DNA from: Candidatus Nomurabacteria bacterium
GTDB lineage: Bacteria; Patescibacteriota; Minisyncoccia; Phycocordibacterales; UBA5272
Reading direction: 5' to 3'
Length of the DNA: 64,000 nucleotides
Assembly: GCA_028286645.1 (NCBI GenBank)
Contig: JAQBRF010000002.1
Coordinates: forward strand, 186,518 to 250,517
Below are positions 7,727 to 35,944 of the stretch, piece by piece. The notes beneath the pieces are model-generated. The model saw only the letters and a list, made by a program, of their open reading frames with translations, searched no databases and had not been told where the DNA came from. How positions within the stretch are numbered: position 1 is the first letter of the stretch; the number at the start of each line of letters is the position of its first letter. Position numbers and translations under genes: made by a program.

Positions 7727-7756
7727 GTTAGATTTTAGACATTAGATTTTAGATAA
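7727..7756. repeat. dispersed motif copy (TAGATTTTAGACATTAGATTTTAGATAA); gene-sense for minus-strand rpmB, ends ~10 nt before its ATG
   Basis: Read directly; forms inverted pair with 7838-7865. Confidence 0.8.
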
Positions 7757-24892: not shown

Positions 24893-25732
24893 ATGAAAAC
24901 ATACAGACCCACAACCCCATCACGAAGAAAAATGTCTACGGTATCATACCGAGGAGTAATCACTGCAAGCGAGCCATACAAGCCGTTAACTCGTGGATTT
25001 CGTCGTGGATCAGGAAGAAATGCGTATGGAAGAATCACTTCACAACATCGTGGAGGAGGACATAAGCGATCTTTCCGAGAAATTGACTTTTCATATGACA
25101 AATTAGACATTCCTGCGAAGGTTCAGACAGTTGAATATGATCCAAACAGATCAGGATTCATCGGGCTTGTAGCATATGCTGACGGAGCAAAGCGTTATGT
25201 TCTTTTACCGAAATCAATGAAAGTGGGGGATAAATTTATAGTTTCAGAAAAAGCAGACCTTGTGGCTGGAAACAGAACAGCCCTTAAGAGCATTCCTGTA
25301 GGAACATTTGTATATAATATCGAACTCAAACCAAGGACCTCTGCTAAGCTTGTTCGTTCAGCGGGAGTATATGCGCAAGTGGTAGCCCATGATGAAGGAT
25401 ATACATCAATCAAGCTTCCTTCATCGGAAGTAAGAAAGGTGACAGATACGTGTTTTGCCTCAATTGGGGAAGTATCTAATGATGAATATCGTTTAAGAAA
25501 TTTAGGTAAGGCAGGACGATCACGCCATCTAGGCATCAGACCAAAGACACGTGCTATGGCCATGAACCCGGTAGACCATCCATACGGAGGAGGAGAAGGA
25601 GCACAGCCTCGAGGAACTCGTCGTCCAAAGACCCGCCATGGAAAGATCACTGGAGGCCATAAGACTAGAACTCCAAAGAAATACTCAAATGTTCACATTG
25701 TTTCAAGACGAGTAGTAAGAAAGAAAAAATAG
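24893..25732 (+). CDS. rplB: 50S ribosomal protein L2
   Basis: 279 aa; GGGHKR, GRNAYGRITSQHRGGG motifs. Confidence 0.95.
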   Translation: MKTYRPTTPSRRKMSTVSYRGVITASEPYKPLTRGFRRGSGRNAYGRITSQHRGGGHKRSFREIDFSYDKLDIPAKVQTVEYDPNRSGFIGLVAYADGAKRYVLLPKSMKVGDKFIVSEKADLVAGNRTALKSIPVGTFVYNIELKPRTSAKLVRSAGVYAQVVAHDEGYTSIKLPSSEVRKVTDTCFASIGEVSNDEYRLRNLGKAGRSRHLGIRPKTRAMAMNPVDHPYGGGEGAQPRGTRRPKTRHGKITGGHKTRTPKKYSNVHIVSRRVVRKKK

Positions 25733-26495: not shown

Positions 26496-26502
26496 CATCT
26501 AA
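26474..26502. repeat. dispersed-motif copy (TAATCTAAAATCTAATGTCTAACATCTAA) overlapping rplV 3' end and 12 nt upstream of rpsC ATG
   Basis: Read directly. Confidence 0.7.
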
Positions 26503-26513
26503 TAACTATTTAT

Positions 26514-27188
26514 ATGACACACGTAGTACACCCATATTCACATAGACTTGGAATCATACGCGACTGGAAGTCACGCTGGTTCGGCAAGGACACCACAAAG
26601 TATGTAGATCATCTTCGTACTGATGTTTTAGTTAGAAGCTGGCTTACTAAACGTCTTCGAGGTATGCATCTTTCTGTAATTGAAATTGAAAGAAGTGAAA
26701 AGCAGTACAGAATAATGATCCACACATCACGCCCTGGTATGATTATCGGACGAAGCGGGGAGGGGATTGAAAAACTTCGAGTTGCTTTAAAGAAGGAGAT
26801 GCACCGATCAAAGATCGTTATTCCTCAGGATATGAAGCTAGATATAGTTGAAGTTAATAATCCAGAAGCGGACGCTGCAATTGTGGCTTCAATGGTAGCA
26901 GAAGGAATCGAAAAGCGTCTTCCTTTCAGAAGAGTTCTTAAGAGTACGATAGAAAAAGTTATGGCCAACAGAGATGTGATGGGAGCTGCTATTGCGGTGT
27001 CCGGACGTCTAGGAGGGGCTGAAATGGCGCGACGTGAAATGATGAAGCGTGGAGGTATTCCACTTCAGACGCTTCGCGCTGACATCGATTTCGCTCGCGA
27101 TAAAGCATACATGACATATGGAGTAATCGGTATTAAGGTATGGATTTATCGAGGAATGAAGTTTGATAAGAAAGAGCAGCCCAAATAA
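26514..27188 (+). CDS. rpsC: 30S ribosomal protein S3
   Basis: KH-domain S3 sequence; synteny. Confidence 0.95.
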   Translation: MTHVVHPYSHRLGIIRDWKSRWFGKDTTKYVDHLRTDVLVRSWLTKRLRGMHLSVIEIERSEKQYRIMIHTSRPGMIIGRSGEGIEKLRVALKKEMHRSKIVIPQDMKLDIVEVNNPEADAAIVASMVAEGIEKRLPFRRVLKSTIEKVMANRDVMGAAIAVSGRLGGAEMARREMMKRGGIPLQTLRADIDFARDKAYMTYGVIGIKVWIYRGMKFDKKEQPK

Positions 27189-27199
27189 TTTAAAAATAT

Positions 27200-27619
27200 A
27201 TGTTATTCCCCAAGAAAGTTAAACATCGAAAGTGGCAGACAGCACGACTCTCAAAAGAGAAGCTGCTTCGACCTGAGACAAAGGGGATTACAGTTTCGTT
27301 TGGCGCTTTTGGATTAAAAGCAGAAACTCCAGCCCGAGTAGCCGCAAATCAAATCGAAGCAGCAAGACGTGTTATGACTCGCCATGCCGGCAAGACTGCG
27401 AAAGTTTGGATTAGGATTTTCCCAGATCGTCCAGTTACTAAAAAAGCTGCAGAAACTCCGATGGGTAAAGGAAAAGGAGATCCAGATCGATATGTATTTG
27501 AAGTTCGTCCAGGAAGAATCTTATTTGAAATAGATGGAGTGTCGGAAGTGGTAGCACGCGAAGCTCTTCGAAAGGCTGGAGCCAAGCTTCCAATTAAGTG
27601 TTTCGTAGTAGCAAGATAA
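27200..27619 (+). CDS. rplP: 50S ribosomal protein L16
   Basis: Synteny; L16 sequence. Confidence 0.95.
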   Translation: MLFPKKVKHRKWQTARLSKEKLLRPETKGITVSFGAFGLKAETPARVAANQIEAARRVMTRHAGKTAKVWIRIFPDRPVTKKAAETPMGKGKGDPDRYVFEVRPGRILFEIDGVSEVVAREALRKAGAKLPIKCFVVAR

Positions 27620-27623
27620 ATAT

Positions 27624-27893
27624 ATGGAAAAAAATACTCAACAAGAAAATATTGCAAACCGAAAGAAGATTACCGGCGAAGTAGTTTCGGATAAAATGGA
27701 TAAAACCGTGGTAGTAAATACATCACGTTATGTTGCTCATAAGAAATACGGAAAGAGATACAAAATAAACAAGAGATACAAGGCGCATGACGAAAACAAC
27801 GAATACAAAGTTGGAGATAAGGTGATCATCGAAGAGTCTCGTCCAATATCTAAAGATAAGACGTTTGTAGTAATTGGCCACGTAGGAAAATAA
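27624..27893 (+). CDS. rpsQ: 30S ribosomal protein S17
   Basis: VVSDKMDKTVVV...HDENNEYKVGDKVIIEESRPISK matches S17; no rpmC between rplP and rpsQ. Confidence 0.9.
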   Translation: MEKNTQQENIANRKKITGEVVSDKMDKTVVVNTSRYVAHKKYGKRYKINKRYKAHDENNEYKVGDKVIIEESRPISKDKTFVVIGHVGK

Positions 27894-27904
27894 TTTAGAA
27901 ATAT

Positions 27905-28285
27905 ATGATACAAGCAGGAACAAATGTAAAAATAACAGATAACTCAGGCGCAAAGTTCGGCCGTGTTTTCAAGATACTTGGAGGATCAAAGAGGAGATAC
28001 GCGTCCTTGGGAGATTTGGTAGTGCTTTCAGTTAAGGTCGCAGAGCCTCGTAAGCAGACAAAGAAGAAGGATATCGTATACGCGGTAGTGGTTAGAACTA
28101 TAAAGCAGGTTAGAAGAAAGGATGGATCATATATTTCTTTTGATGATAATGCTGTGGTTATAGTGGACAAGGTAAAGAAGGAGCCTCGAGCGGGACGTGT
28201 TTTCGGACCAATTCCCCGAGAGCTTTCAGAGTCGGGTGTAGACGGATATAAGAAAATAGCCTCATTAGCTCCTGAGGTAATATAA
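27905..28285 (+). CDS. rplN: 50S ribosomal protein L14
   Basis: MIQAGTNVKITDNSGAK N-terminus. Confidence 0.95.
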   Translation: MIQAGTNVKITDNSGAKFGRVFKILGGSKRRYASLGDLVVLSVKVAEPRKQTKKKDIVYAVVVRTIKQVRRKDGSYISFDDNAVVIVDKVKKEPRAGRVFGPIPRELSESGVDGYKKIASLAPEVI

Positions 28286-28322
28286 CTAGATGGTAGATAT
28301 TAGACATTAGATTTTAGATAAA
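28286..28322. repeat. dispersed-motif copy (CTAGATGGTAGATATTAGACATTAGATTTTAGATAA), 13 nt upstream of rplX ATG
   Basis: Read directly. Confidence 0.75.
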
Positions 28323-28334
28323 TACAAAAATACC

Positions 28335-28637
28335 ATGCACATAAAAAAAGGAGACAAAGTAATAGTGATCGCTGGGAAGGAAAAAGGAAAATCCTCTACT
28401 GTCGTTCGTATTCTTCGTGAAGAGAACAAGGTTATCTTAGAAGGATTGAACATGGTAAAACGCCATACTCGTCCACTAAAGGCGGGAGAAAAGGGAGGTA
28501 TCGTAAATATTTCAATGCCGATCCACGCTTCAAATGTGAAGCTCGCGGAAAAGAAGGTTAAAGGTGAAAAGAAGGAAGATAAGAAGCCTGCAGCAAAGAA
28601 AAGGTCAGCCAAAAAAGTCGTTAAAGCAGAAGAATAA
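28335..28637 (+). CDS. rplX: 50S ribosomal protein L24 (Lys-rich C-terminal tail)
   Basis: KKGDKVIVIAGKEKGK...KRHTRP KOW motif. Confidence 0.9.
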   Translation: MHIKKGDKVIVIAGKEKGKSSTVVRILREENKVILEGLNMVKRHTRPLKAGEKGGIVNISMPIHASNVKLAEKKVKGEKKEDKKPAAKKRSAKKVVKAEE

Positions 28638-28666
28638 AAAAAGCCGCTCGTTGAGCGGCTTTTTCA
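28636..28666 (+). terminator. rho-independent terminator (AGCCGCTCG-TTG-AGCGGCT + T-run) inside the ribosomal cluster
   Basis: Read directly. Confidence 0.7.
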
Positions 28667-28885
28667 CACGAAGAACGTTGTTACTATGGATGGCAACCAC
28701 ACCATTGTGCCGAACCATACCCATAAAGTTAAAGCCAGCACTCCGACCATCCACACTATTCTGCTGGTTTTGCAGCTCTCTCCTATTTCGAAGGTCACTT
28801 TAGTTATAACGTATGAAACAAGGCTGAGGACAAAAAAGAAAGATATGGTTTTATCCCACTGGAGCATCTCCAAGATTTCGATCAT
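28664..28885 (-). CDS. small two-TM membrane protein (73 aa)
   Basis: ORF with two hydrophobic helices. Confidence 0.3.
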   Translation of the reverse strand: MIEILEMLQWDKTISFFFVLSLVSYVITKVTFEIGESCKTSRIVWMVGVLALTLWVWFGTMVWLPSIVTTFFV

Positions 28886-28901
28886 GTATCCTCCCGGAGC
28901 T

Positions 28902-29105
28902 TTAGTTTAGGGGTAAACGCGGCATTAAGATTTCTGCGGACATTAGAAGCAGTGTGGCGATAAATGCCCATTTCCCCACGAACCAAATTCGCTGCCATGT
29001 TAGGTCAGGCGAGTTTCTCTTTATAAAGCCCGCTATTGCCAAGGGGCCAAATAAAAAAAAGAGCAGGCCTAGCATTACTGCAACTGCTGATATAGAGCTA
29101 TACAT
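28902..29105 (-). CDS. small two-TM membrane protein (67 aa)
   Basis: ORF with two hydrophobic helices. Confidence 0.3.
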   Translation of the reverse strand: MYSSISAVAVMLGLLFFLFGPLAIAGFIKRNSPDLTWQRIWFVGKWAFIATLLLMSAEILMPRLPLN

Positions 29106-29195
29106 CTTCTACCCCCGGCAGTAAGTATCTCTTAATTATACCATATATGTTATGAATAGTCAATAGGAATGAAATGGTGTTAAAATAATCTAATT

Positions 29196-29879
29196 ATGAG
29201 AGTTTTAACTTGGAATATCGCAAGTATTATTATCTTTAAATTTCTAAGATTTATAAAGCATAATGGTAAAAATATAGACCACTGGGCATTTCATCCGTTT
29301 ATAAATGCAGACTTTGTCTCGAAGCTTATTGGCAATATAAACCCCGATATTATTTTTCTTCAGGAATTTCAATTTAAAGAAGATGCTGAATCCATAAATG
29401 GCTTAATTGAATATCCATACAAGACCTTTATTCTTACATCTTTGCCTCATAATACTTATACTCTGATAGCTTCTAAACAGCCGTTTGTTATTGAAACACA
29501 TAATGGAATTACGCTTATTAAATATGAAAACATAATTTATATTCCTATTCATTTGCATGCCTTTTCATCCAGAAAACGTTCTCAGGAACTTATAAACATT
29601 TTAGGTTTATTCTCAGAAGGAGAAAGATATGTAATTATTGGAGACGCGAATATGGCATCTCGCGGAAGCAAGTATATCTTTTCTAAAGATAGAAAAAGCT
29701 ATAAAAAGATTTTAAGTAAATTAAATGATATTACATCAAATATAAAATCAACAACTATTTTTTTACTCTCTCTAGATAAGGTATTTGTATCAAAAGATAT
29801 TAATATAAAACACGTGGAAAGATTAAAAGAAAGAGGGAAGTATATGGACCATTATCCTGTTTATTTTTATTTTGAATAA
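29196..29879 (+). CDS. endonuclease/exonuclease/phosphatase (EEP) family protein, cytoplasmic, catalytic residues intact
   Basis: LTWNI ... DIIFLQEF ... IGDANM ... MDHYPV are the EEP N/E/D-N/D-H motifs; no signal peptide. Confidence 0.6.
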   Translation: MRVLTWNIASIIIFKFLRFIKHNGKNIDHWAFHPFINADFVSKLIGNINPDIIFLQEFQFKEDAESINGLIEYPYKTFILTSLPHNTYTLIASKQPFVIETHNGITLIKYENIIYIPIHLHAFSSRKRSQELINILGLFSEGERYVIIGDANMASRGSKYIFSKDRKSYKKILSKLNDITSNIKSTTIFLLSLDKVFVSKDINIKHVERLKERGKYMDHYPVYFYFE

Positions 29880-29924
29880 AAAAAGCCGCCCTTGCCAAAG
29901 GGGCGCTTGGTTATAATTGATCCT

Positions 29925-30140
29925 CTAGTATGGGGATGTCTGTGGAGTGCTCAGCAGCATCAGGGTCAAAATAACTCCGATTATGATGAGCAATGCTGCG
30001 CCTGAAATGGTGATGCCTCGCTTCCACCACCGCTCATATCGTGATCCGGTTTTCTGTTTCCGGTGTTCTACTTCTGCGAACCGGTGAATGCCAGCCAGGA
30101 GGAGGCCAAGCACAAGGGCTACCCAAAATCCATGATGCAT
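29925..30140 (-). CDS. small two-TM membrane protein (71 aa), GC-elevated, SD-like AGGGGT upstream
   Basis: ORF; composition visibly more G/C-rich than flanks. Confidence 0.3.
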   Translation of the reverse strand: MHHGFWVALVLGLLLAGIHRFAEVEHRKQKTGSRYERWWKRGITISGAALLIIIGVILTLMLLSTPQTSPY

Positions 30141-30480
30141 GTTGCAATACCCCTAAAGAGAAGCTACGTATACATATTACTGCAATATCTTCTTTTGTCA
30201 ATAAACATAGACAAAGTTTTTTAATATGAAAATAAGCTATTTTACAATAGTCACTTTTTATAGTAGAGTATAAGTCTATTACAAATAACGGACTTTCGGG
30301 TTCAAGAAGCGACGTATGACGTTTTGCCGGAGATGATCTGAGCAAGCCAATCGTGCTTAAAATAATAAGGAGCTTCGCGACAATAATATTTTGCCTAATA
30401 TCACTTTTTAGAAAATTAAGAAAAAGTAACATTAGGTGATGATTTTAAAAAATCGCTTCGCTCATTAAAATCAATCAAAT

Positions 30481-31062
30481 ATGGCAGTAAAAAAAACAGG
30501 GGAATTTATGGGAGTAGAAGAAAAGCAGAAAGTTGCATTTGAAAAGCTTTCAAAGGAATTTGGTTATAAGAATGCTATGGCCGCACCGCACTTGGTGAAG
30601 GTTTCTGTTTCTGTGGCGACTGGATCAGCAATGAAAAGAGATAAGAAAAGAAATGAAGTGGTAATGGATCGTATATCAAAGATTACCGGACAAAAGCCAA
30701 CTCTTAGAAAAGCCAAGAAAGCTGTGGCATCATTTAAGACTCGTATAGGAGATGAAATCGGAGTAGCAGTGACTATTCGTGGAGCTCGCATGTATGGCTT
30801 CCTAGACAAGCTTCTTAATGTTTCACTTCCTCGTACAAAAGACTTTAGAGGAGTCTCACGAAGATCAGTCGATGATATCGGAAATATAACTTTCGGAATA
30901 AAAGAACATATAATTTTCCCGGAAATTAAAGATGAAGAGCTCAAGGATGTGTTCGGTCTAGCTATTACAATAGTAACTACTGCAAAGACAAAGCCAGAAG
31001 CTACAAAGTTTTTCGAAATAATCGGAGTGCCATTTAAGGCAGAAGAAGGAAATAAGAAATAA
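30481..31062 (+). CDS. rplE: 50S ribosomal protein L5
   Basis: L5 sequence; synteny. Confidence 0.95.
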   Translation: MAVKKTGEFMGVEEKQKVAFEKLSKEFGYKNAMAAPHLVKVSVSVATGSAMKRDKKRNEVVMDRISKITGQKPTLRKAKKAVASFKTRIGDEIGVAVTIRGARMYGFLDKLLNVSLPRTKDFRGVSRRSVDDIGNITFGIKEHIIFPEIKDEELKDVFGLAITIVTTAKTKPEATKFFEIIGVPFKAEEGNKK

Positions 31063-31132
31063 GGAAATTACAAAAACTATAAAATCATATAGTTTTTGTT
31101 TTTTGTATCCAGTCGTAGTACTATTGAAGTAC

Positions 31133-32503
31133 ATGGAAAACCAACCGCCAAATGAAGTCTCTAAGATAAATACTCCGGACTCCTCAGTTAATGAAAAGGC
31201 TATTGAAGAATATTTGATTAGCCTAAATGCAGACGAACGAAGACTCGCTCTAGAATTGGTTATAGAAGCAAAGGGAGATATATCTAAAATTGGCGCAATT
31301 TACGATAAAGCCAGCGTATATATAAAATCAATATTAGGAGCAGTAGTTTTTGCTACGGCTATGCAAGGAGATGTCCCAAAGACAGAACATTTACAGGCTC
31401 ATGGTTTAGAATTAGCGGATGACGTTGAAGCATTAAGGAAAGAAATAAAATCTATAACAGATTTTGATTTTATAGAAATGGCAAATAGTAATAGTAGAGT
31501 TGCCACGCTAATGAAGGCTGAGACTCCGAGCCAATTAACAATTGTCCACCTTGGACAATCTCATAAGACAGATATAGAAACAAATGATGCAAATAGTTAT
31601 GAAATAATTCAAAGCCAAAAACAGATTTCCAGAATATTGTCATCTTTTGCAGTTCCCGCTACGCGTGTTTTTGTTGAAGGGTACTATGAAGAGACAATGA
31701 AAGCCGTAGAAGATGTAGTGAGTATTTCAAACAAATTTGAGGCTCTGGATTCATTTACTGATATTGCATACGAATATTATTATTTTATTCAATCCTATCA
31801 AACCACTGAATCTATCGCAGTTATAAACAAAATAGTTTCTGATAAATTAAATAAAATTGGCTTTAAAGAAATTTTACCGCTTCAATTAAGCAACGGTAAG
31901 GACAAGTTATCGTTAGTTGCTCCAGCAAATCTTCCTACCAAGTCTTCTTTTTCTACTGATTCTGAAAGTCATGCATTGCTAAATGGATCAAGCGTATTGC
32001 TTAATACAAAAGGTGTTATACAGATGATGCCCGCGGAAACAGAGCGCGGGAGCATTAACCCATTCATGATGACCGATGTCCTTAAAGAAAAGGGAAAGAA
32101 GTTAGGAGAGATACTTTTAACTATTAATCCGAAAGTTTATAAATATACAGCAGATAATATTCTCCCTGAGATTTCGGCATTTTCTTCATATGAGATTACA
32201 CAACTAACCCAGGGAGATAATTGTCAGAAGAATGTAAAATGCCAAATGCTAGCAAAAGAAATATTGGAAAATGATATCCCTAAAATCTCTACAGCTATTT
32301 ATGAGGATAGAGAGAATGTGGCAATAGAGCAAATAGCAAAATATGCTAAAAGTGGTCAAAAAGTTATACCTCTTGTATTTGGACAAGGGCATGACTTTAC
32401 TGGAGCGGTTGTAAAGTGGAATAAATCTCATCCTGATAAGCAATTTAACTTGATAACCATCAAACCGCCTTCTTTTGCTTATGGCCCCAGCACATCCCAG
32501 TAA
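31133..32503 (+). CDS. hypothetical protein, possibly TraB/GumN-like (ORF-track TTG start 31103 likely over-extended; ATG at 31133)
   Basis: TIVHLGQSH near N-term and VIPLVFGQGHDFTGAVV near C-term resemble TraB-family GT.HL / G.GHL.G motifs; weak. Confidence 0.3.
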   Translation: MENQPPNEVSKINTPDSSVNEKAIEEYLISLNADERRLALELVIEAKGDISKIGAIYDKASVYIKSILGAVVFATAMQGDVPKTEHLQAHGLELADDVEALRKEIKSITDFDFIEMANSNSRVATLMKAETPSQLTIVHLGQSHKTDIETNDANSYEIIQSQKQISRILSSFAVPATRVFVEGYYEETMKAVEDVVSISNKFEALDSFTDIAYEYYYFIQSYQTTESIAVINKIVSDKLNKIGFKEILPLQLSNGKDKLSLVAPANLPTKSSFSTDSESHALLNGSSVLLNTKGVIQMMPAETERGSINPFMMTDVLKEKGKKLGEILLTINPKVYKYTADNILPEISAFSSYEITQLTQGDNCQKNVKCQMLAKEILENDIPKISTAIYEDRENVAIEQIAKYAKSGQKVIPLVFGQGHDFTGAVVKWNKSHPDKQFNLITIKPPSFAYGPSTSQ

Positions 32504-32541
32504 ATAAAATGAAGAAGGTAGTATATACTACTTAAATATTT

Positions 32542-33144
32542 ATGGAAAATACTCTGATACTTATCGGCATGTCGGGAATTGGGAAAAGCCATTACTCCAG
32601 ACGGCTAACAGCAAACTATGGTTATAAAGTTCTGGAGGTAGACAAGATGATAGCAGAAGAGCTCGGTAGGCATGATGTATACGATGTAACCAATTTTCTA
32701 GGACACCCTTATAGTGAAGAATATAAAGAAAAATGTAAACAATATTTGGAACTAGAAGAAAAGTTTACAAATATTGCTTTAGATTATGCAGAAGCCCATC
32801 CCGAGGAACTTGTCATCATTGATCCCACAGGAAGCATGGTGTACTTGCCACCAGAGACTCTTGAAAGGTTTGGAAAATTTAACTATACGATTTACCTAGA
32901 CGTTGATGACTCAAAAGTAGGCACGATGGTCGCAAAGTATTTTAATGATCCGAAGCCGGTGATCTGGGGCGAGTTCAATGATTTTACTGAAGATAATTTT
33001 AAAGAAAGAATTTTAGAGCAGTATCCTAAGTTATTAAATAAAAGGCGAGAGTTATATGCCAAGCATAGCAAAATTGTAATCCCATATCGAGATCACGAAG
33101 ATGGATTTTTAGATGTTAAAGAGTGGTTAAATCAACATAAATAA
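32542..33144 (+). CDS. P-loop kinase, shikimate-kinase-like fold
   Basis: Walker A ILIGMSGIGKSHYSRRL; VIIDPTGSMVY resembles SK ATGGG region. Confidence 0.4.
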   Translation: MENTLILIGMSGIGKSHYSRRLTANYGYKVLEVDKMIAEELGRHDVYDVTNFLGHPYSEEYKEKCKQYLELEEKFTNIALDYAEAHPEELVIIDPTGSMVYLPPETLERFGKFNYTIYLDVDDSKVGTMVAKYFNDPKPVIWGEFNDFTEDNFKERILEQYPKLLNKRRELYAKHSKIVIPYRDHEDGFLDVKEWLNQHK

Positions 33145-33185
33145 TCATACTTGACAAGAGTTTGGAGGAATGGTAGGGTGCTAAT

Positions 33186-34565
33186 ATGATAAAAGGAATA
33201 AAAAACAGCGCTTTAGCGCTTGCAGTTACAGGATTTTTTATAAGTAATATAGTTTCAGTATCGGCTGCGTATTTTGACAACGCTCCAGCACCTGCTTGCG
33301 GCATCCAAATTACAGGCAGTCTTTCACAAGGCTCTACAAACCCAGAGGTCTATATTTTACAAGGCTTTCTTAAGCAATCGGGATATTTAAATGCTATTCC
33401 TAATGGAACATTTGGAGCTCAAACTAAGCTCGCGGTAAAGTCATTTCAGAGAGATAACGGTATCCAGCCTACTGGATCAGTTGGTCCGGCGACGAGAAAT
33501 GCTATCAATGAAAGAATCTGTGATAGTGACCAGTCTGTCTTAGGAGATGACTATGGATATTCGGGATATTCTGGATACTCCGGATATCAAACAGGAGTTA
33601 CATATGTTGCTCCAAACGATCCGTACGTTAAGGTTATTACTCCTCAAACAAGTAATCCTGCAATTTATTCAAATCCTGGAACAAGCTATGTTTCTTCAAC
33701 ATATCAGTCAACTCCACCCTATACTTCGATTCCTTCATACGCTCCTCCTGTAGTTAATTCAAATTCCTCAGTATTTTCACAAGGCGGAAGTGCAAATATA
33801 ATTTATTCTTCTGCCATTGGTTATACATATGGTCTTACACCTCAGCCAGGATCTCTTACCATAAATAATCCACAGGCTAACACCTCTTACAGAGAAGGGG
33901 ATACAGTATATCTATCTTGGACTACAAATAATTTAACATCAAATAATCAGTTTCAGATCATATTAGAAAGTGTAAATGCCAATCAAAATAAAGTTGTCTC
34001 AGTTACATCTGGAAATAGCGCGTCATTTACCTTGACTAAAGAACTACTTGATTCAATCTGCTCAGGCACATGTGACTACAATTACAATAGCCAAAACGCT
34101 CAATATAAAGTAGTTCTTGCTACTCCGATCACAGATATATCAGGACAGTCATCAATATTTAGAGCAAGTGTTCCTATAAATGTAACAAGACCGTTCTCTT
34201 ATAATGGTACTGCAACTATTTCTCCAAATAAGACGCCGGTAAACAGTGGAGAAGTATTCAGGCTTTACGTAAACACTCCAGCTAATCTGAATAATAGTAA
34301 TTATCTTTACCCAACTCTTACATTTAGATTAAGAGCAATATGCCCATCTAATGTAACTGTAAGTATCGCGGGCGCACAATGTGGAAGCGAGTTTACACTT
34401 CCTTATACTTATTCAAATAATCAGCAGGAAGTTCCAGTTACTATCAACAACGCTGGCTATTATCCTCAAAAAGTAACATTTGAAATCGTTACTTATAACG
34501 GGGGAGTGGAAGTAAGCAAGTCTCAAACAGAAGTATCAGTAAATGGATTATCATTTAGCTACTAG
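33186..34565 (+). CDS. secreted surface protein with Cys-bracketed PG-binding module (third paralog), Tyr/Ser/Gly-rich linker, Ig-like C-terminal domains
   Basis: Signal peptide; VYILQGFLKQSGYLNAIPNGTFGAQTKLAVKSFQRDNGIQPTGSVG. Confidence 0.5.
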   Translation: MIKGIKNSALALAVTGFFISNIVSVSAAYFDNAPAPACGIQITGSLSQGSTNPEVYILQGFLKQSGYLNAIPNGTFGAQTKLAVKSFQRDNGIQPTGSVGPATRNAINERICDSDQSVLGDDYGYSGYSGYSGYQTGVTYVAPNDPYVKVITPQTSNPAIYSNPGTSYVSSTYQSTPPYTSIPSYAPPVVNSNSSVFSQGGSANIIYSSAIGYTYGLTPQPGSLTINNPQANTSYREGDTVYLSWTTNNLTSNNQFQIILESVNANQNKVVSVTSGNSASFTLTKELLDSICSGTCDYNYNSQNAQYKVVLATPITDISGQSSIFRASVPINVTRPFSYNGTATISPNKTPVNSGEVFRLYVNTPANLNNSNYLYPTLTFRLRAICPSNVTVSIAGAQCGSEFTLPYTYSNNQQEVPVTINNAGYYPQKVTFEIVTYNGGVEVSKSQTEVSVNGLSFSY

Positions 34566-34597
34566 TTAGACTAGGTTTTAGACCAGAGACATTGGAT

Positions 34598-34640
34598 TAA
34601 AGACAAAGGCGGCTCATACGGTGCCGCCTTTGTCTTGTTA
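34598..34640 (+). terminator. stem-loop terminator candidate (AGACAAAGGCGGC-TCATACGGT-GCCGCCTTTGTCT)
   Basis: 13-bp stem; weak U-tract. Confidence 0.45.
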
Positions 34641-34756
34641 ATAAGATTGATCACTTTTCAATTATAAGATATATACTTGTATTAGAAATTATTAATTTAG
34701 AAAAAAGAATTTTAATGTGCCAATGACTGACGACTATTGGCTATAGACTATTTATT

Positions 34757-35590
34757 ATGCCTCCACAAGAATCGAACCAAGCTTCCAATCAGCCTACTTC
34801 AGAACCTGTAATTCCTATAGCTTCTATCCCGACTCCAACTTTTACTCCACCACCTGTAGCTCCTACACCTCTACCCACGACACCACCAGTACCCCCAGTT
34901 TCTCCTGTAAATGTGCCTCCAGCTAGTACAGATCCAAAGAAGTCTCACCTCCTTCCTGTGTTACTTGGTATTTTACTTCTTGTGCTTATTGCTGCCGGCG
35001 GATACGCATACTATAAATGGGGACAAGCTCCCGCGGAACAATCTGTAGTAGTGCTCACTCCTCAGCCAGTAAAAGAAGAAAAGAAAGTAGAAGCGATTCC
35101 TACAGTGTCTTCACCCATTTCACTTAGTAGTGGAGGCCTTGGAATAGTGAGCTTCGGATCTTCTACTATAGATGTTATTGCAAAGATCAGTAGTGTTTAT
35201 GGTACCTCAACGAAAGACACTGGGTGGACAAGCAGTTTCTCTACATATGGGACATGCCCAGGAAAACAAATACGAGTAGTTGAATGGGGTAAATTAAAAG
35301 TATTCTTCGGGGATACTGTTTTTGGAAAGCAAAGTTTTTTCCATTATGAATATACAAATAACAGCACTACGACAGTTGGTTCGGGAATAACGACGGGGAC
35401 AGGGCTCACATTAGATGTTTCAGAAGATCTGCTTAAGAATCTTTATCCGACGGCTCAAATTACTACAGATCAAAATAACACACAATGGTTTACTCTTGGA
35501 GTAAATGCCTCCACCACTGCTAGTTTCCTCGGAACTATAAATAACGGGAAAATAGCTTCAATTGCTGGTGGTATACAGTGCGGAGAATAG
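34757..35590 (+). CDS. Pro-rich N-terminus / single-TM / extracellular-domain protein, hypothetical
   Basis: PTPTFTPPPVAPTPLPTTPPVPPVSP then TM LLPVLLGILLLVLIAAGGYAYY. Confidence 0.35.
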   Translation: MPPQESNQASNQPTSEPVIPIASIPTPTFTPPPVAPTPLPTTPPVPPVSPVNVPPASTDPKKSHLLPVLLGILLLVLIAAGGYAYYKWGQAPAEQSVVVLTPQPVKEEKKVEAIPTVSSPISLSSGGLGIVSFGSSTIDVIAKISSVYGTSTKDTGWTSSFSTYGTCPGKQIRVVEWGKLKVFFGDTVFGKQSFFHYEYTNNSTTTVGSGITTGTGLTLDVSEDLLKNLYPTAQITTDQNNTQWFTLGVNASTTASFLGTINNGKIASIAGGIQCGE

Positions 35591-35758
35591 CTCATAGAGC
35601 TTCTAGTTTACTTATCTATTAGAATATGATAGTATTTTAGAACTGTCTGTAATCCGTGTATCTCCGCAAGTTTTAAACACACGTTTAGAATTTACGGACA
35701 TAAGCGCGATATTCAGATGGCATAATTCCGTAAATCCTTACGGTAACTAATTATATAA

Positions 35759-35944
35759 ATGGCAAAAACATCAACCATCGCAAGAGCAAATAAGAAGCCT
35801 AAGTTTTCAACACGAAAAGTTAACCGTTGCTTTAAGTGCGGTCGAAAACGAGGATTTATGAGAGATTTCGGTCTTTGCAGAACTTGTTTTAGAGAGCTTG
35901 CAAACGAAGGAATGGTTCCGGGAATTAAGAAAGCCTCATGGTAA
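35759..35944 (+). CDS. rpsN: 30S ribosomal protein S14, zinc-binding type Z
   Basis: 61 aa; [23 protein letters not shown]. Confidence 0.9.

Follow-up and report, generated by a model that had tools for sequence, protein, structure and literature searches.

The 64,000-nucleotide stretch of contig JAQBRF010000002.1 analysed here, which we call the window, belongs to a Candidatus Nomurabacteria metagenome-assembled genome and carries, inside the spc ribosomal-protein cluster, a block of non-ribosomal DNA between rplX and rplE. This block holds a gene for a protein of the endonuclease/exonuclease/phosphatase (EEP) superfamily and three small open reading frames (ORFs), orf73, orf67 and orf71. 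We favour, with a probability of about 0.6, the explanation that the spc operon is split at this point and contains a variable slot, filled here by the gene of a probable DNA-repair EEP nuclease together with mini-ORFs of doubtful status. The spc cluster of this Nomurabacteria clade would thus be divided at the rplX/rplE junction into two transcription units, rplX ending in an intrinsic terminator and rplE restarting from its own sigma-70-type promoter through a conserved structured leader without a Shine-Dalgarno (SD) sequence. The DNA lying between terminator and promoter would be transcriptionally insulated; genes may enter it without breaking ribosomal protein (r-protein) expression, and it would be filled with different, unrelated genes, or left empty, genome by genome. 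The comparison of relatives shows the predicted division of the operon, and from the distribution pattern of the cargo we infer a permissive, insulated slot.

The insertion in the rplX-rplE junction is real at the level of the assembled sequence, and an identical 9-kb stretch, junction included, was recovered in an independent Logan assembly of SRR13312974. We compared it with 80 loci from one-per-species genomes, gathered with uL5 as query, in each of which uL14, uL24, uL5 and uS8 were then located. A distant set consists of Paceibacteria (L040-L084, n = 45) with uL5 63-74% identical, and a close set (L005-L039) has uL5 72-82% identical. The first-pass annotation of this DNA expected rplX and rplE to be contiguous in relatives, and this is what the distant Paceibacteria display: the distance from the rplX stop to the rplE start is -38 to 50 nt in 38 of the 39 distant loci carrying both genes, the lone exception being L047 with a gap of 3,101 nt. 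Among the close relatives carrying both genes, the gap spans 28 to 5,196 nt and its contents are heterogeneous, with PG_binding_1 surface proteins reaching 1,575 aa, a T2SSE/PilB-type ATPase, NrdR, an AAA_28 protein, a sortase together with an ice-binding-like protein, and many ORFans, some sites being empty; no recombinase or integrase was found among these slot contents. The EEP gene and the three small ORFs are absent at this site from the loci of all relatives (tblastn; phmmer at E<=1). None of them keeps the same insertion, a comparison that the first-pass annotation had proposed, and the cargo is thus lineage-specific. Exact-protein look-ups of rplN, rplE and EEP for strains devoid of the insertion returned only the same SRR13312974 contig. 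As far as these sequences can tell, the gap is owed to an architecture common to the clade and not to a mobile element.

Two sets of signals delimit the slot. On the rplX side, a hairpin followed by a T-run is present within 90 nt 3' of the gene in 23 of 27 close relatives, and such terminator hairpins include all eight of the most compact sites, where the rplX stop and the -35 box are at most ~64 nt apart. In the window, the strong terminator announced downstream of rplX was confirmed as a hairpin with a perfect 12-bp stem, flanked by an A-run and a T-run. On the rplE side, three motifs are common to the close relatives: GTAGAGT, which is a -10 box, is followed by GACGTATAACGT and AATCGTGCT; in the window they lie at 30263, 30311 and 30349, respectively. 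The leader motif AATCGTGCT occurs in the window and in 33 close-clade loci, each of the other two motifs recurring in most of these. It adjoins rplE in none of the 45 distant loci, one of which (L050) has a single match ~160 nt upstream of rplE without the other two motifs. With one mismatch allowed, the GTAGAGT box precedes rplE in 30 close relatives versus 0 of 45 distant loci. The rplE promoter is close to TTTACA-17-TAGAGT in most of 31 sequences, its -35 box having diverged in several. Because they are conserved across the clade, compact and empty sites included, the predicted terminator after rplX and the restart at rplE are ancestral clade features and not products of this insertion, to which the first-pass annotation had tied them. 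Likewise, the AT-rich DNA said to precede rplE has the announced length and composition (30141-30480, 340 nt, GC 0.31 for a window GC of 0.39), but it is no plain filler, since it holds the conserved promoter and the leader.

The leader folds into a closing helix (P1) of 7 bp with one bulged A, a near-invariant internal loop (UAUAAC on the 5' side, YAAU on the 3' side) and a second helix (P2) of variable length, whose base changes in a compensatory manner (GUUUC/GAAGC, CUGG/CCAG, CUCGCU/AGCGGG and CGUGUA/UACACG). The element is carried by 34 loci in all, and covariation was tested on an alignment hand-spliced around the variable apex of P2. Pairing is maintained in 87% of the cells versus 78.8% in shuffles, none of the 500 shuffles reaching 87%; double-sided changes are seen in 40 cells, a number also attained by 0 of 500 shuffles, and affect 8 of the 13 pairs. 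Controls with slid partners pair only at 28-49%. No Rfam family matches the leader, the only hits being sub-threshold and driven by the terminator, on which ground a known RNA in the GC-rich or spacer DNA was discarded. A conserved structure with covariation, located in the 5' untranslated region of an r-protein gene, makes this element a candidate r-protein leader. More tentatively, and with odds that we put somewhat below even, it could be an undescribed autoregulatory r-protein leader bound by S8 or uL5, which arose together with the terminator and the promoter and so split the spc operon into an insertion hotspot.

In 29 of 31 genomes the 3' strand of P1 stops 8-15 nt short of the rplE ATG, without an SD sequence in between; one further genome has 34 nt, and the window 122 nt. 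The additional spacer of the window holds AATCGCTTCGCTC, which resembles the 3' strand of the leader. A tandem duplication of the leader was considered as the origin of this DNA and rejected, the alignment score being matched by 22 of 500 shuffles and the fold having a z-score of -1.4; the extra 122 nt are an oddity of this genome. A separate observation concerns the region upstream of rpsN (35591-35758), which contains ATAAGCGCGATAT...CTAAT, similar to the 5' part of the rplE leader, without the CGTRCTT partner strand, and may be another r-protein leader.

The main cargo of the slot is the EEP gene, whose product (100% identical to NCBI "JWN37_264") matches PF03372 (Exo_endo_phos) over residues 4-212 with 33.9 bits for a gathering cutoff of 24.5. 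The protein has neither a hydrophobic segment nor a signal peptide and possesses the motifs WNI, LQE, GDAN and DHYPV. Across 40 family members, E57, H119, D150, N152, D194, D218 and H219 show no variation, and at least 90% of the members keep N7. Given the invariance of the catalytic residues, the predicted enzyme should be active, and the initial description of a cytoplasmic EEP enzyme with intact catalytic motifs is borne out. The family is rare (56 clusters among 1.84 billion representatives, 3 proteins in a 5.8-billion word-indexed search) and compact, all its members having ~220-240 aa, one of which is annotated in another Nomurabacteria genome (QQR50212.1). The gene has a GC content at third codon positions (GC3) of 0.22 and a codon-usage score of 0.149, inside the range of native genes. 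Its -10 box TAAAAT ends 9 nt before the ATG, there is no SD sequence, and the mRNA may be leaderless.

An AlphaFold2 model built from a 40-sequence alignment (pLDDT 96.4, pTM 0.92), which superseded an earlier one from three sequences (pLDDT 65), has the alpha/beta sandwich fold. Foldseek retrieved 242 PDB EEP chains at E<=1e-3, headed by the apurinic/apyrimidinic (AP) endonucleases of D. radiodurans, Arabidopsis ARP, M. mazei ExoIII, H. pylori XthA and human APE1, with TM-scores of ~0.7. Profile comparison with PDB entries gave TDP2 as the best match of the family (E ~1e-8, mainly over residues 38-160, a second stretch being insignificant), followed by an uncharacterised Enterococcus EEP protein, Neisseria NApe and nocturnin; sphingomyelinases (4.5e-5), mannosyl-6-phosphatase (3e-4) and DNase gamma (0.098) were weaker. 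The affinity to DNase I or sphingomyelinase that the motifs had first suggested is therefore not retained, these matches being weaker than those to TDP2 and ExoIII types; the lack of a signal peptide or hydrophobic element likewise speaks against the secreted enzymes of the DNase I, CdtB or sphingomyelinase kind. The motif III consensus of the family, HLNS, aligns with SHLES of TDP2, the window protein having HLHA.

The neighbourhood could be read for 13 family members, the window included, and seven of these contexts contain genes of DNA repair or metabolism. They comprise a LexA-like protein and a Y-family polymerase downstream of the EEP gene; a UvrD-PD(D/E)XK helicase-nuclease overlapping the EEP start codon; a divergent uracil-DNA glycosylase (UDG) of family-4 type, 70 nt away; an MGMT DNA-binding-domain protein that follows the EEP gene after 3 nt, a Metallophos protein preceding it; a methylpurine DNA glycosylase (MPG; Pur_DNA_glyco) two genes off; and the arrangements EEP-dnaG-rpoD and dprA-EEP-topA. 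The remaining six are MsrB-EEP-MsrA, the small ORFs of this window, a DUF2238 protein, a histidine phosphatase, a HAD hydrolase and a Y1 transposase. Seven DNA-related contexts out of 13, with two unrelated monofunctional glycosylases among the neighbours, suggest a DNA damage-processing phosphodiesterase, which would cleave at AP sites or clean 3' or 5' DNA ends, an assignment to which we give even odds or slightly better. Fold, profile similarity and the gene neighbours of homologues together lead us to propose that the EEP protein would be a cytoplasmic Mg2+-dependent phosphodiesterase acting on damaged DNA, with AP sites or blocked 3' or 5' DNA ends as substrates, in the manner of ExoIII/APE1 or TDP2.

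The homologue P0008 is found just upstream of topA (L107, 534-1235) and just downstream of dprA (L106, 4001-4702). Topoisomerase IA forms 5'-phosphotyrosyl links with DNA. The topA and dprA neighbours, together with TDP2 as best profile match, lead to the idea of a bacterial enzyme removing 5'-phosphotyrosyl topoisomerase adducts. By analogy, the compact EEP family could be a bacterial counterpart of TDP2 that clears trapped type-IA topoisomerase adducts, which we consider less likely.

Several observations weigh against the explanation proposed here. Promoters and terminators were identified by consensus matches alone. In no other genome of the comparison is the leader 122 nt away from the rplE ATG, so that it may work differently here than in relatives. 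As to the enzyme, the Foldseek E-values are near-equal for AP endonucleases, TDP2, nocturnin and sphingomyelinase, and the fold therefore does not discriminate between substrate classes. Moreover, the protein fails the Xth/ExoIII equivalogs TIGR00633 (15.6 vs 99 bits) and TIGR00195 (12.9 vs 182.6 bits), and the family has a His in motif III where ExoIII and APE1 have a Tyr (vHLns aligns with LYLPS of Neisseria NApe); with scores so far below the cutoffs and the motif-III His, membership of the Xth/ExoIII family was rejected and the protein was not filed there. Finally, 6 of the 13 contexts have no DNA link, several of them with membrane-protein neighbours, and no DNA repair gene adjoins the EEP gene in this window.

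The three small ORFs would, with the EEP gene, make up three independent units: orf67-orf73 on the minus strand, the stand-alone and possibly leaderless EEP gene on the plus strand, and orf71 on the minus strand. We found no homologue of orf73, orf67 or orf71, nor any copy of their own sequences, among 5.8 billion proteins, and no match among all ORFs of 106 loci; they are not similar to one another, and blastn against plasmids gave nothing meaningful. Their GC3 is 0.47-0.57 versus 0.22-0.39 for the genes of the region. The two minus-strand ORFs with two transmembrane (TM) segments reported in the first-pass annotation are there, with their strand and hydrophobic segments, but their status as genes is unconfirmed, homologues are missing and the codon usage is like that of spurious ORFs. 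Similarly, the further G/C-rich small protein indeed has a GC of 0.52 (window 0.39) and an SD-like AGGGG, but it lies on the minus strand, convergent with the EEP gene, and is equally unconfirmed as a gene.

Some or all of these ORFs could thus be non-genes, the GC-richer stretches being decayed cargo remnants or non-coding DNA and the EEP gene the only functional cargo, a possibility to be taken seriously even though we hold the opposite to be more probable. The missing homologues agree with it, as do the codon-usage log-odds (orf73 0.007, orf67 -0.016, orf71 -0.053), which equal those of spurious ORFs (average -0.036) and lie below the 5th percentile of real gene chunks (0.076). ORFs of similar length overlap them on the opposite strand, and none of the three was called as a gene on the Logan contig, where a 132-aa ORF (30034-30432, minus strand) was called instead; this low-complexity ORF, which overlaps orf71 and is antisense to the rplE promoter and leader, is very likely a spurious call. 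Conversely, each small ORF is preceded by a good, well-spaced SD sequence and has the profile of a two-TM hairpin, the ends of each small-ORF unit coincide exactly with a near-consensus promoter and a terminator, and orf67 and orf73 fill a 442-nt stretch save for a 16-nt spacer that holds the SD sequence of orf73. Either these ORFs encode mini membrane proteins that are foreign or novel, or they are not genes, and nothing ties them to the function of the EEP protein. The proposed module of a nuclease with membrane partners does not fit this picture, in view of the three separate transcription units, of the disparity in GC3 (0.22 vs 0.47-0.57) and of the lack of a conserved small-membrane partner near EEP homologues in the contexts examined.

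The presence of small membrane ORFs beside the EEP gene, here as in L086, L087 and L004, could alternatively point to an enzyme that is not a nuclease but a phosphatase or a lipid/sugar phosphodiesterase of the sphingomyelinase, inositol-phosphatase or mannosyl-phosphatase kind, working at the inner membrane face with small membrane proteins. The profile matches to sphingomyelinases and mannosyl-6-phosphatase speak for it, as does the motif-III His, which is that of sphingomyelinase, CCR4 and DNase I types. We nevertheless regard this alternative as improbable: the membrane neighbours are non-homologous between loci, the protein itself has no signal peptide or hydrophobic segment, the TDP2 and ExoIII-type profile matches are stronger and the top fold matches are AP endonucleases, and DNA metabolism recurs in more than half of the readable neighbourhoods.

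The block is further marked by an exact 16-nt direct repeat, GAATAAAAAAAGCCGC, present in just two copies in the 64 kb even with 2 mismatches allowed; two matches were reached in 0 of 100 shuffles. The copies, at the rplX stop and at the EEP stop, bracket a 1,242-bp unit made of orf73, orf67 and the EEP gene. Closing this unit into a circle would bring the EEP gene and orf73 face to face across a single, complete bidirectional terminator. A small circle recombining at 16 identical bp would produce such a pattern, which fits an insertion event but is suggestive only. An inverted repeat, I1 (28895-28915 / 30148-30168, 81% complementary), was judged a likely chance match.

The block might accordingly be read as a small mobile or accessory cassette, the 1,242-bp unit having entered by recombination at the 16-bp identity, maybe as a circle, and maybe encoding a nuclease toxin with membrane immunity or partner proteins. 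Besides the repeat, the absence of the cargo from all relatives, the mosaic composition of the block, the atypical GC3 and non-native codon usage of the small ORFs, and the Y1 transposase adjoining one EEP homologue are in line with such an origin. Yet no integrase, transposase or relaxase is encoded in or near the block (ORFs of 26500-35600), so that, despite the flanking repeats, the mobile acquisition suggested at first sight did not find support. Furthermore, EEP homologues stand in housekeeping DNA-metabolism contexts without conserved small partners, the composition of the EEP gene is like that of native low-expression genes, and GC3 is very heterogeneous inside the unit. As stop codon, A-run and GC stem are functionally constrained, partial convergence could also have produced the 16-mer. 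We therefore give the cassette little credence. Toxin/immunity, defence or phage origins, the first of which had been put forward in the first-pass annotation, were dismissed, PADLOC having no match for the EEP protein, the three small ORFs and the three downstream proteins, PHROGs none either, and a scan of viral contigs no relatives. What survives of the accessory insertion inside an essential operon is the lineage-specific cargo, but not the coherent module with membrane partners nor the mobile element. The split spc operon with its variable slot remains the explanation that we prefer, and the features on which it is based are listed in Table 1.

Table 1. Features of the rplX-rplE junction (positions in the window)
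Feature	Position	Strand	Evidence or remark
rplX (uL24)	28335..28637	+	Pfam ribosomal_L24 + KOW; closes the upstream transcription unit
16-nt direct repeat, copy 1, GAATAAAAAAAGCCGC	28632..28647	+	rplX stop codon and start of terminator
Predicted bidirectional intrinsic terminator, rplX (+) / orf73 (-)	28638..28664	both	Arms 12 nt, 100% complementary; 3-nt loop; A-run upstream, T-run downstream
orf73, hypothetical 73-aa two-TM peptide (unverified)	28664..28885	-	ORF, SD GGGAGGA, two hydrophobic segments
orf67, hypothetical 67-aa two-TM peptide (unverified)	28902..29105	-	ORF, SD GGGGG, two hydrophobic segments; 16 nt upstream of orf73
Promoter-like site, orf67-orf73	29135..29163	-	TTGACT-17-TATAAT with upstream TG; 11/12 consensus; top match of an 8-kb scan
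Promoter-like site, EEP gene	29157..29186	+	9/12 consensus with TG; -10 TAAAAT
EEP-superfamily metal-dependent phosphodiesterase, 227 aa, cytoplasmic (predicted)	29196..29879	+	PF03372
16-nt direct repeat, copy 2	29874..29889	+	EEP stop codon and start of hairpin
Hairpin between convergent EEP gene and orf71	29887..29905	.	T-run on minus strand only; mainly orf71 terminator
orf71, hypothetical 71-aa two-TM peptide (unverified)	29925..30140	-	GC 0.52
Promoter-like site, orf71	30174..30201	-	TTGACA-16-TAATAT; 10/12 consensus
Predicted rplE promoter, clade-conserved	30241..30269	+	TTTACA-17-TAGAGT
Candidate structured rplE 5' leader	30307..30358	+	P1 30307-30314 with 30352-30358; internal loop UAUGAC/CAAU; P2 hairpin 30321-30347
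Extra 122-nt spacer, leader to rplE ATG	30359..30480	+	Seen in this genome alone
rplE (uL5)	30481..31062	+	Pfam Ribosomal_L5 + L5_C

The genes upstream of the junction are, in order, rpsC, rplP, rpsQ, rplN (27905-28285) and rplX. rpmC (uL29) is absent between rplP and rpsQ, which are 4 nt apart (27619-27624); a lineage-specific loss of uL29 has been reported in the candidate phyla radiation (CPR) (PMC9297842). Downstream, rplE is followed by four non-ribosomal genes (31103-35590) and then by rpsN (35759-35944), rpsH, rplF, rplR, rpsE, rplO, secY, adk and map. The products of these four genes are an ORFan of 466 aa, a P-loop kinase of 200 aa (SKI/AAA_33-like), a PG_binding_1 protein of 459 aa and a Pro-rich protein of 277 aa that has a single hydrophobic stretch. 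Most of the close clade (L005-L039) also has the PG_binding_1 protein between rplE and rpsN, with 36-48% identity. Among Paceibacteria, uL5 and uS8 are 360 to 5,629 nt apart. The rplX-rplE gaps of L006, L015, L017, L020, L025, L029 and L047 likewise hold very large secreted PG_binding_1 proteins, which measure 402-1,575 aa and in one case include an LCCL domain, so cell-surface genes are a recurring cargo on both sides of rplE.

The window also contains an intergenic repeat family, TTAGACATTAGATTTTAGAT, built of TAGAYNN heptads, with 8 copies at <=3 mismatches versus ~0.02 expected, located at 7735, 7839(-), 9054, 24856, 26476(-), 28300, 46572 and 51978(-). Among these positions are the spacer that separates rplN from rplX and the DNA immediately 5' of rpsC (26476) and of the ORF starting at 24893.

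Taken together, these data do not describe a new kind of system but a variant of operon architecture combined with an uncharacterised subfamily of a known enzyme superfamily. The junction offers a concrete example of how an essential operon may become permissive to insertion, with a terminator, a promoter and a candidate leader RNA delimiting a gap that gathers differing genes, and it adds a candidate r-protein leader in a phylum where such regulation is almost unstudied. The EEP family is in turn a candidate for a missing base-excision or end-cleaning repair nuclease in reduced Patescibacteria genomes, which may aid the reading of their repair capacity.

Compared with ExoIII and APE1, the EEP protein has the same four-layer fold and the same Mg2+-binding and catalytic set (Asn, Glu, Asp, Asn, Asp, Asp-His), and some of its homologues adjoin monofunctional glycosylases, UDG and MPG, enzymes that need an AP endonuclease. 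It differs from them by an identity of only 11-18%, by a length shorter by ~30-50 residues and by an insert of its own family after strand 1 (residues ~9-33); the motif-III tyrosine of APE1 is Y171. TDP2, to our knowledge a eukaryotic family, is the best PDB profile match, and the xHLxS motif III is common to it and to the consensus of the EEP family. The His and Ser of the SHLES motif of TDP2 contact the 5' phosphate, and unlike TDP2 the window protein has Ala instead of Ser in HLHA and no UBA domain.

Few gene arrangements of bacteria are as conserved as the str-S10-spc-alpha cluster, which is the backbone of CPR phylogenomics. In contrast to this conserved order, the cluster of the window is interrupted between rplX and rplE by variable cargo and again between rplE and rpsN by the four non-ribosomal genes, and rpmC is missing from its usual position. 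In Escherichia coli, S8 represses rplE translation through a helix-internal loop-helix site upstream of the start (PMC3616713, PMC4176348), and Fu et al. report for most r-protein regulatory RNAs of E. coli a narrow distribution, to Gammaproteobacteria (PMC3616713). What the candidate leader has in common with the S8 site is the helix-internal loop-helix form of a conserved RNA and its place just ahead of the rplE start codon. Unlike in the E. coli spc operon, it stands behind its own predicted promoter after a terminator, rplN-rplX forming a separate unit, and in contrast to the E. coli site its sequence is related to no Rfam family.

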